Both the position numbers and the translations under genes were made by a program. From the IMG/VR virus record IMGVR_UViG_2703718811_000010: DNA of 5,046 bases. One strand, 5' to 3'. Below the pieces are notes generated by a model. That model was not told the DNA's origin. It did no database searches and worked only from the letters and a program-made list of their open reading frames with translations. Below are positions 1,756 through 1,935 of this stretch, one piece after another (the stretch's first letter is position 1; each line of letters starts with the position of its first letter). The stretch is from a virus (Duplodnaviria; Heunggongvirae; Uroviricota; Caudoviricetes).

Positions 1756-1917
1756 ATGTCATCAAAGAACAGAACCCGCAGAACAACAACCCGCAATATC
1801 CGTTTCCCCAATCACATGATTGAACAGATCAACAGCGCCCTTGAGCATAAAGGGTCCGGTAACTTTTCAGCGTGGGTTATTGAAGCCTGTCGCCGGAGAC
1901 TGACAACTGACAACTGA
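1756..1917 (+). CDS. Small basic protein (53 aa), predicted ribbon-helix-helix DNA-binding fold; function unknown
   Basis: ATG 1756 to TGA 1915-1917 gives MSSKNRTRRTTTRNIRFPNHMIEQINSALEHKGSGNFSAWVIEACRRRLTTDN. Basic N-terminal tail, short beta-strand-like NIRFP, a helix, a G-x-S turn (GSGNFS) and a second helix ending in RRRL fit the Arc/MetJ/CopG pattern. Below the ORF-track length cutoff. Only a weak SD (GGGG) and a weak -10 candidate GATAAT at 1717-1722. It resembles small conserved proteins found beside cos/nohA in E. coli cryptic prophages, but I cannot confirm family membership. Confidence 0.6.
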   Translation: MSSKNRTRRTTTRNIRFPNHMIEQINSALEHKGSGNFSAWVIEACRRRLTTDN

Positions 1918-1935
1918 CAACTGACAACTGACAAC
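1901..1935 (+). repeat. Tandem heptanucleotide repeat (TGACAAC) x4 plus one TGACAAG copy
   Basis: Perfect copies at 1901-1907, 1908-1914, 1915-1921, 1922-1928 and a variant TGACAAG at 1929-1935. The repeat covers the last codons and the stop of the 1756-1917 CDS. Confidence 0.95.

Follow-up and report, generated by a model that had tools for sequence, protein, structure and literature searches.

Does the run of TGACAAC heptads that overlaps the stop codon of a small prophage gene serve as a binding site for a regulatory protein, or is it a slippage-prone repeat that has grown out of the coding sequence itself? The window examined in this work (the whole stretch of DNA that was analysed, 5,046 nucleotides in length) contains one such array, for which the original prediction had proposed the operator format that is used by some ribbon-helix-helix regulators. 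The omega protein of plasmid pSM19035 is a ribbon-helix-helix repressor of this kind, and its heptad operators, (A/T)ATCAC(A/T), occur as direct and inverted repeats ahead of the promoters that omega regulates and are retained along with the protein. Our analyses of the array, of the gene that it ends and of the related loci indicate that it is very probably a slippage-driven heptanucleotide microsatellite (viz. a variable-number tandem repeat, VNTR) that has grown from coding sequence at the 3′ end of a prophage gene of the ylcI/ynfO family. The evidence for this reading and the alternatives to it are discussed below.

The heptad array and its prophage context

Tandem Repeats Finder (TRF) has identified one strong array in the window, at 1899-1941, with a period of 7, 6.1 copies, 100% matches, no indels and a score of 86. 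Direct reading of the sequence places TGACAAC units at 1901-1907, 1908-1914, 1915-1921, 1922-1928 and 1929-1935, exactly the five heptads that had been described at first, and the array proves to be slightly longer than was noted then, since a sixth unit, TGACAAg (1936-1942), matches at 6 of its 7 bases on the right edge and two further in-register bases, AC (1899-1900), are present on the left edge. Altogether, 36 consecutive bases each repeat the preceding unit exactly, which is far beyond chance. When one mismatch is allowed, TGACAAC occurs 24 times on the two strands of the whole window (6 times in the array and 18 times outside it), and shuffles of the whole window contain 15 such matches on average (sd 3.4), so that the rest of the window is at background level; no second cluster was found at this threshold on either strand, near the start of the gene or elsewhere in the window. 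The features of the array and its immediate surroundings are as follows:

1756-1917, plus strand: gene of the YlcI/YnfO family (DUF3950), 53 amino acids (aa) (open reading frame list; Pfam DUF3950, E = 4.5e-19; named 'YlcI/YnfO family protein' by RefSeq on near-identical loci)
1896-1906, plus strand: end of the conserved lambda-like module, where homology to lambda and to most E. coli prophages ends at GGAGACTxAC (megablast, lambda alignment)
1899-1941, plus strand: perfect heptanucleotide array, a polymorphic repeat (VNTR), (ACTGACA)6 plus 1 base, i.e. five full TGACAAC units followed by TGACAA (TRF, counts in related loci)
1915-1917, plus strand: TGA stop codon contributed by the third TGACAAC unit, there only with at least three units (translation of modelled alleles of 0-9 units)
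1942-2183, plus strand: probable 3′ untranslated region (3′ UTR) of the ylcI-like gene, ending in an intrinsic terminator (terminator scan, hairpin fold)
2113-2130, plus strand: (AAT)6, a second short tandem repeat that is also polymorphic (TRF; 5 or 6 copies in related loci)

The last five codons of the 53-aa gene (LTTDN) and its stop codon are located inside the array and, as the original prediction stated, the heptads straddle this stop codon, with the TGA at 1915-1917 opening the third TGACAAC unit. The encoded protein scores 68.5 bits against PF13132 (DUF3950), for which the cut-off is 25, and it is a member of this family. Among the 660 homologues found, the core is invariant up to ...VIEA, whereas the tail that follows ...ACRRRL is hypervariable in both length and sequence in the protein alignment, and the variable C-terminal tail of the family starts after residue L49 (CTG, 1900-1902). 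In lambda, the homologue of this gene is the final one ahead of cos. In the titles and the first lines of the abstracts of 15 out of 39 matching papers, no function for DUF3950, YlcI or YnfO was found, and neither the locus nor the TGACAAC unit in E. coli was found in the literature searched. Many of the database entries for the YlcI-like protein are labelled 'partial' (29-52 aa; cluster members P0004-P0011), which suggests that draft assemblies often break in or beside this gene, probably due to the multi-copy prophage sequence around cos.

A strong intrinsic terminator (hairpin at 2153-2176 and a T-run to 2183; −15.8 kcal/mol, z = −5.45) is present downstream of the array, and the ylcI mRNA presumably ends there, at 2183. 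The (AAT)6 repeat is located in the same non-coding stretch, approximately 170 bp downstream of the heptads. Positions 2009-2182 of the window share 74% identity with the sequence that immediately follows the ylcI-like ORF52 of phage BP-4795 on its 3′ side, and they match 71 phage records, nearly all of which are from Stx-converting phages. Within this region, a conserved non-coding element at 2079-2183 (plus strand) ends in the terminator and contains a promoter-like site, GTCACA-16-AATAAT, at 2091-2118; no Rfam match was obtained for this element, and it is either the terminator and 3′ UTR of ylcI or a small RNA of about 60 nt. The best promoter-like site of the region (TTGAAA-16-GATAAT, 10/12) is found further downstream at 2719-2746 on the plus strand and is followed by a hairpin and T-run at about 2789-2822. 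From the stretch 2719-2822, an RNA of about 70 nt would be produced, with AAUAACAACAAUAC as its CA-rich 5′ end; this is another candidate small RNA, although its predicted fold is only marginally better than that of shuffled sequences (z = −1.9).

Viewed from the minus strand, the window represents the final portion of the late region of a lambdoid prophage, in which the following features were recognized:

4490-5023, minus strand: lysozyme (open reading frame list, Pfam)
3647-4216, minus strand: P22_AR_N/ORF11CD3 antirepressor-like gene, 189 aa (open reading frame list, Pfam)
3023-3490, minus strand: Rz, with an embedded reading frame (3085-3270) in the Rz1 position
1548-1559, minus strand: cosN cohesive-end sequence, AGGTCGCCGCCC on the plus strand, 340 bp from the array
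909-1436, minus strand: Nu1-like terminase small subunit, 175 aa, which runs straight into the part of tail protein I
364-912, minus strand: C-terminal part of lambda tail protein I, 182 aa, fused to the Nu1-like reading frame

The sequence AGGTCGCCGCCC is the reverse complement of GGGCGGCGACCT, which we take to be the cohesive end of lambda, and in phages DE3 and 434 the matching stretch carries the annotated features 'cos site' and 'cosQ'. In the minus-strand reading, about 1.1 kb without convincing genes separates Rz from the cos site. Collinearity between the window and intact relatives starts only at position 943, with the joint located near 909-943, and the same junction of Nu1 and tail protein I is also present in two related loci (L188 and L191); the element in the window is for these reasons a deletion remnant. 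The large terminase subunit, the head genes and the majority of the tail genes are no longer present in this prophage remnant. The antirepressor-like gene, together with a reading frame for a hydrophobic polypeptide of 50 aa, occupies 3498-4216 (minus strand) between the lysozyme gene and Rz; this insert is present in L002 and L198-L201, and a 37-aa reading frame is found in its place in L001 and L186.

Variation in copy number and its effect on the protein

Repeat units were counted in 25 related E. coli loci, viz. the window, 2 RefSeq matches, 2 IMG/VR contigs and 20 contigs retrieved by exact-protein look-ups. Eleven of these loci carry 2 units, two carry 4, eight carry 5, three (the window included) carry 6 and one carries 8; an allele with 3 units was not observed among the 25. 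Arrays of at least 4 units are perfect in every case, and in three of the 2-unit alleles the first unit is imperfect (ACTAACA ACTGACA). All 25 loci share the same right flank, and alleles that show no differences over 400 bp of left flank and 170 bp of right flank nevertheless differ in their number of units (2 vs. 5; 5 vs. 6 vs. 8). A defective prophage (L188) shows 99.5% identity to the window over 2,976 bp, and the 10 gap positions in this alignment consist of one heptad and one AAT. Because alleles with identical flanks of 570 bp differ in copy number, the array must change faster than point mutations accumulate. The comparison of copy number across strains that had been suggested for this locus thus reveals a range of 2-8 units, and the view that these heptads are prone to slippage is well supported by the occurrence of 2, 4, 5, 6 or 8 units, some of them between identical flanks. 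The locus combines near-identical head-to-tail units, polymorphism in whole units among near-identical sequences and a plausible proto-repeat, which are among the characteristics by which a VNTR is recognized.

The consequences of this variation for the protein are limited to a single step. Modelled alleles with 3-9 units in all cases encode a protein of 53 aa that ends in LTTDN, while the allele with 2 units encodes 56 aa ending in LTTDKKTC, an allele with one unit would encode 76 aa and an allele without any unit 54 aa. The change from 2 to at least 3 units therefore converts the C-terminus from ...LTTDKKTC to ...LTTDN, and additional copies leave the protein as it is. Our recomputation agrees with the earlier statement that TGA is present in all three frames within three units, and because of this property, once the array has at least 3 units, further changes in copy number have no effect on the protein and do no more than extend the 3′ UTR. 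Classical translational phase variation had been judged unlikely on these grounds, and this judgement is borne out, as 3-9 units lead to one product of 53 aa and 2 units to one of 56 aa; a switch of reading frame or promoter by repeat number, and thereby of expression, as is characteristic of phase-variable contingency loci, was not found. The 56-aa to 53-aa change at the step from 2 to 3 units is the sole visible effect of the array. As judged from the alignment of the family, the loss of three C-terminal residues is unlikely to matter, because the tail after ...ACRRRL is hypervariable.

Exact-protein look-ups provide an independent view of the alleles that exist. The product of the 2-unit allele (56 aa), which was predicted before the look-up, is found on 67 contigs, and the product of alleles with at least 3 units (53 aa) on 525 contigs, all of them from E. 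coli where a species is named, whereas the products of the 0-unit and 1-unit alleles are absent from the approximately 15 billion sequences covered. A single protein record, WP_021499251.1, is annotated on both a 6-unit and a 5-unit allele. Alleles with at least 3 units are thus commoner than those with 2 units (525 vs. 67 contigs), and this excess, together with the missing 3-unit allele, could be due to selection for the shorter protein or for longer arrays, or just to clonal sampling.

Distribution, probable origin and alternative explanations

The gene core and the array differ greatly in their distribution. Megablast matched the segment between cos and the DUF3950 core, with an identity of about 90%, to 4,361 of 5,426 complete E. 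coli genomes as well as to lambda-like phages, and all of these left-part alignments end at query positions 402-405, which correspond to 1901-1904 of the window, in the first unit of the array. In contrast, only 4 of the same 5,426 genomes (two strain pairs) contain both the array and its right flank. No match to the array and right flank was obtained in the plasmid collection, a flank-anchored pattern of the array had no match in the metagenome collection, and the same pattern detected only 2 contigs in IMG/VR (L010 and L207). The 80 closest loci of the family in IMG/VR have 20 different 3′ tails, and only one of them, the contig of L010, has within 300 nt a tandem repeat with a period of 4-12 and at least 3 copies. 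In three loci (L197, L203 and L204) the same ylcI allele, in its 2-unit form, and the same right flank adjoin an HNH/Terminase_2/TerL module and not Nu1/gpA; the ylcI-like gene and the non-coding stretch downstream of it therefore travel as one module between lambdoid phages whose packaging systems differ.

The loci that lack the array indicate from what it may have arisen. At its position, the 80 closest family loci in IMG/VR have a single-copy CTGGCAACAGAT, CTGTCAACAGAG, CTGTCAACAGAGAAG or similar sequence encoding L-x-T-D/E, and these are the codons (CTG NCA ACA GAN) that follow the ...ACRRRL core in the family. The 2-unit state (ACT[A/G]ACA ACTGACA) encodes L-T-T-D as normal coding sequence and is the homologue of CTGNCAACAGA, which occurs once in other family members; the imperfect first unit, ACTAACA, matches GGAGACTAAC of lambda. 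The 2-unit state looks like the seed that expanded. According to the scheme that we favour, the coding sequence of one lineage would by chance have come to read ACT[A/G]ACA ACTGACA, an imperfect two-unit repeat, which would then have become a perfect two-unit repeat, and slipped-strand mispairing in replication would have expanded the two units to 4-8 perfect ones. Units would continue to be gained and lost faster than the flanks acquire point mutations, and the passage from two to three units would place a TGA in frame and shorten the protein from 56 aa (...LTTDKKTC) to 53 aa (...LTTDN). We infer slipped-strand mispairing because copy number outpaces point substitutions, which is the signature of this process; the direction of change was probably an expansion from two units, and the array appears to have no function, as judged from the lack of signals for one.

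Among the functional explanations, a tuning or contingency locus may be considered first, in which copy number would modulate the stability of the ylcI mRNA, the processing of its 3′ UTR or the passage of the converging late transcript. Such an effect has a precedent in Haemophilus influenzae, where 7-bp repeats modulate the expression of the adhesin genes hmw1A and hmw2A, and the present array is hypervariable in copy number and, by its position, transcribed on both strands, since it forms part of the ylcI mRNA and would be crossed by late transcription that proceeds from the lysis genes towards Nu1. A −35-like hexamer, CTGACA (1935-1940), located 17 bp from CATAAC (1958-1963), was also read by eye at the edge of the array. 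However, this pair fails the promoter scan, its second hexamer lacks the T at position 6, and added units are placed upstream of it, so that the hexamer spacing is independent of copy number; it was therefore rejected as a promoter of the array. Predicted foldings of the ylcI mRNA, taken as the stretch that begins 36 nt before the start codon and ends with the terminator at 2183, were compared for 2-10 units. Over this range the minimum free energy varies by no more than 2.3 kcal/mol, the ribosome-binding site is predicted to be equally accessible and the array to remain mostly unpaired. The array region folds no better than shuffled sequences (z = −0.62), and an Rfam scan of the whole window, at E values up to 1, gave nothing in or near the array. 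An effect of copy number on transcript structure, which had been suggested as one way in which the array might act, thus finds no support, the predicted fold being essentially independent of unit number between 2 and 10 units, and we consider tuning by copy number to be very unlikely.

The proposal that the heptads form an operator array supposes, by analogy with omega of pSM19035, that dimers of a putative ribbon-helix-helix YlcI-like protein would each bind one heptad, and that copy number would set the strength of repression or of a roadblock on a converging transcript (the ylcI mRNA on the plus strand, the late mRNA on the minus strand). Certain characteristics of the protein agree with this. 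Its sequence pattern fits a ribbon-helix-helix protein, with a basic N-terminus, a short beta-like stretch (RNIRFP) and two helices with a G-S-G-N loop between them, the AlphaFold monomer (pLDDT 75) contains two helices (19-32 and 34-51), and the heptads are direct repeats of the right unit length. The fold matches retrieved by Foldseek are nevertheless not significant (E above 3), and no link at the sequence level to any ribbon-helix-helix family or solved structure was found; a ribbon-helix-helix fold is only weakly indicated, and the YlcI-like protein may well be a DNA-binding protein of this type.

The position and distribution of the array are more difficult to reconcile with an operator. 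It is located at the 3′ end of the gene, covering the last codons and the start of the 3′ UTR, and not at a promoter; a consensus scan detected no promoter-like site overlapping it on either strand, and no terminator at this position; the motif has no second cluster in the window; and the 2-unit form is plain coding sequence. Lambda and 4,361 of the 5,426 E. coli genomes have the core of the gene, yet just 4 of these genomes have the array and its flank and just 1 of the 80 closest IMG/VR loci has a repeat, and a conserved protein would not be expected to have an operator that is missing from nearly all homologous loci. The array and the omega heptads are alike in being 7-bp tandem units, in this case beside a small protein of possible ribbon-helix-helix fold, but the present units are at the end of a gene, are direct only, have no predicted promoter and are missing from nearly all homologous loci, so that neither an array at the controlled promoter nor a joint conservation of protein and operator, as in omega-type systems, is observed. 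The operator function put forward in the original prediction is consequently unsupported, in view of the 3′-end position, the lack of a promoter-like site and of a second cluster, and the rarity of the array relative to the gene, and we regard it as very unlikely. It seems just as improbable that the heptads are a copy-number-variable binding array in a broader sense, for the YlcI-like protein or for another small DNA- or RNA-binding factor of phage or host, and a similarly low likelihood attaches to the suggestion that, between two converging transcription units beside cos, slippage would tune either a roadblock that late transcription meets as it enters the packaging genes or how stable the ylcI transcript is. 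If this reading were true, it would provide the first functional clue for the widespread DUF3950 family, including the copy of lambda itself.

A further possibility is that the repeat marks, or arose at, a boundary between lambdoid modules and persists by promoting illegitimate or microhomology-mediated exchange. The end of homology to lambda and most prophages at the first unit is in accordance with this, as is the joint movement of gene, repeat and right flank into phages with another packaging module (L197, L203 and L204). However, the C-terminal tail varies throughout the family whether a repeat is present or not, other alleles still have single-copy sequence homologous to the first codons of the array, and the right flank is common to all array-bearing alleles, so that no exchange is seen at the array; chimeras joining the array to a different left or right flank were not found among the 25 loci. 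A role as a recombination joint is accordingly highly improbable.

There is next to no chance that the array acts as an RNA sponge, which by analogy with the prophage anti-sRNA AgvB would titrate the GU-rich seed of the host sRNA GcvB through ACAAC-rich RNA of the plus strand, as the repeated ACAAC is complementary by sequence to the GUUGU motifs of the GcvB R1 region, but the predicted duplex (−35.5 kcal/mol) ranks only 24th of 60 among composition-matched heptamer arrays, the array is equalled or surpassed in duplex energy by about 30% of ordinary 60-nt segments of the present sequence, Rfam gives no match, and AgvB-type anti-sRNAs map 3′ of PR′ near the toxin/moron site and not near cos (PMC4104026). 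The prophage sRNAs AgvB, AsxR and Pas were likewise rejected as the identity of the array, since they map near PR′/Q and the holin gene and not near cos (PMC4104026; bioRxiv 10.64898/2026.05.13.724894).

Relationship to known repeats and significance

Slippage from a coding seed, the origin that we prefer for this array, makes it a further instance of a well-known kind, viz. an ordinary slippage microsatellite (VNTR). The MLVA typing of E. coli O157 is based upon VNTR loci with units of 6-18 bp that vary by slipped-strand mispairing. The present array resembles such loci in being a perfect short-unit tandem, in differing in copy number between otherwise identical strains and in its location in prophage DNA, partly within a reading frame; it differs from them in its rarity (4 of 5,426 complete genomes) and in that the protein is unaffected by copy-number changes among alleles of at least 3 units. 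With the phase-variable loci of Haemophilus and Neisseria it shares a unit that is not a multiple of three, a location inside a reading frame and a hypervariable copy number, but its TGA comes into frame within three units, which allows no on/off switch, and it is located at the extreme 3′ end of the gene rather than in 5′ coding or promoter sequence.

The heptamer unit itself is also known from unrelated organisms. In Nostoc PCC 7120, the 20-mer ttgtcagttgtcagttgtca, which is made up of the identical heptamer unit, has 44 appearances in the genome (PMC2408588). Our searches found three consecutive TGACAAC units in more than 120 species, mainly from the cyanobacteria, Planctomycetota and Acidobacteriota, and in 63 stretches in IMG/VR, and none of these matches except L010 shares a flank with the window. 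The arrays in Microcoleus, Calothrix, Nostoc, Planctomycetota and Acidobacteriota often consist of many units, with several arrays per contig (L066-L185). Two composition-matched control heptamers gave 2 and 21 stretches in IMG/VR, compared with 63 for TGACAAC, and heptamer arrays as such are therefore not rare in this collection. In contrast to the E. coli array, the cyanobacterial arrays are dispersed and multi-copy and occur in unrelated genomes, and the TGACAAC unit that is common to the E. coli locus and the cyanobacteria is best read as a coincidence.

The biological weight of the array is small, and its interest is that of a textbook case in which a chance two-unit repeat in coding sequence has given rise to an unstable microsatellite. 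Gene prediction programs will assign either of two lengths, 53 or 56 aa, to the product of one and the same ylcI-like gene. The array (2-8 units) and the AAT repeat (5-6 units) together constitute a fast-evolving marker, which could separate closely related E. coli strains that carry this prophage. For the gene itself, a unit that bears TGA, and hence a stop codon in every frame, caps the damage that the growth of the repeat can do to the protein.
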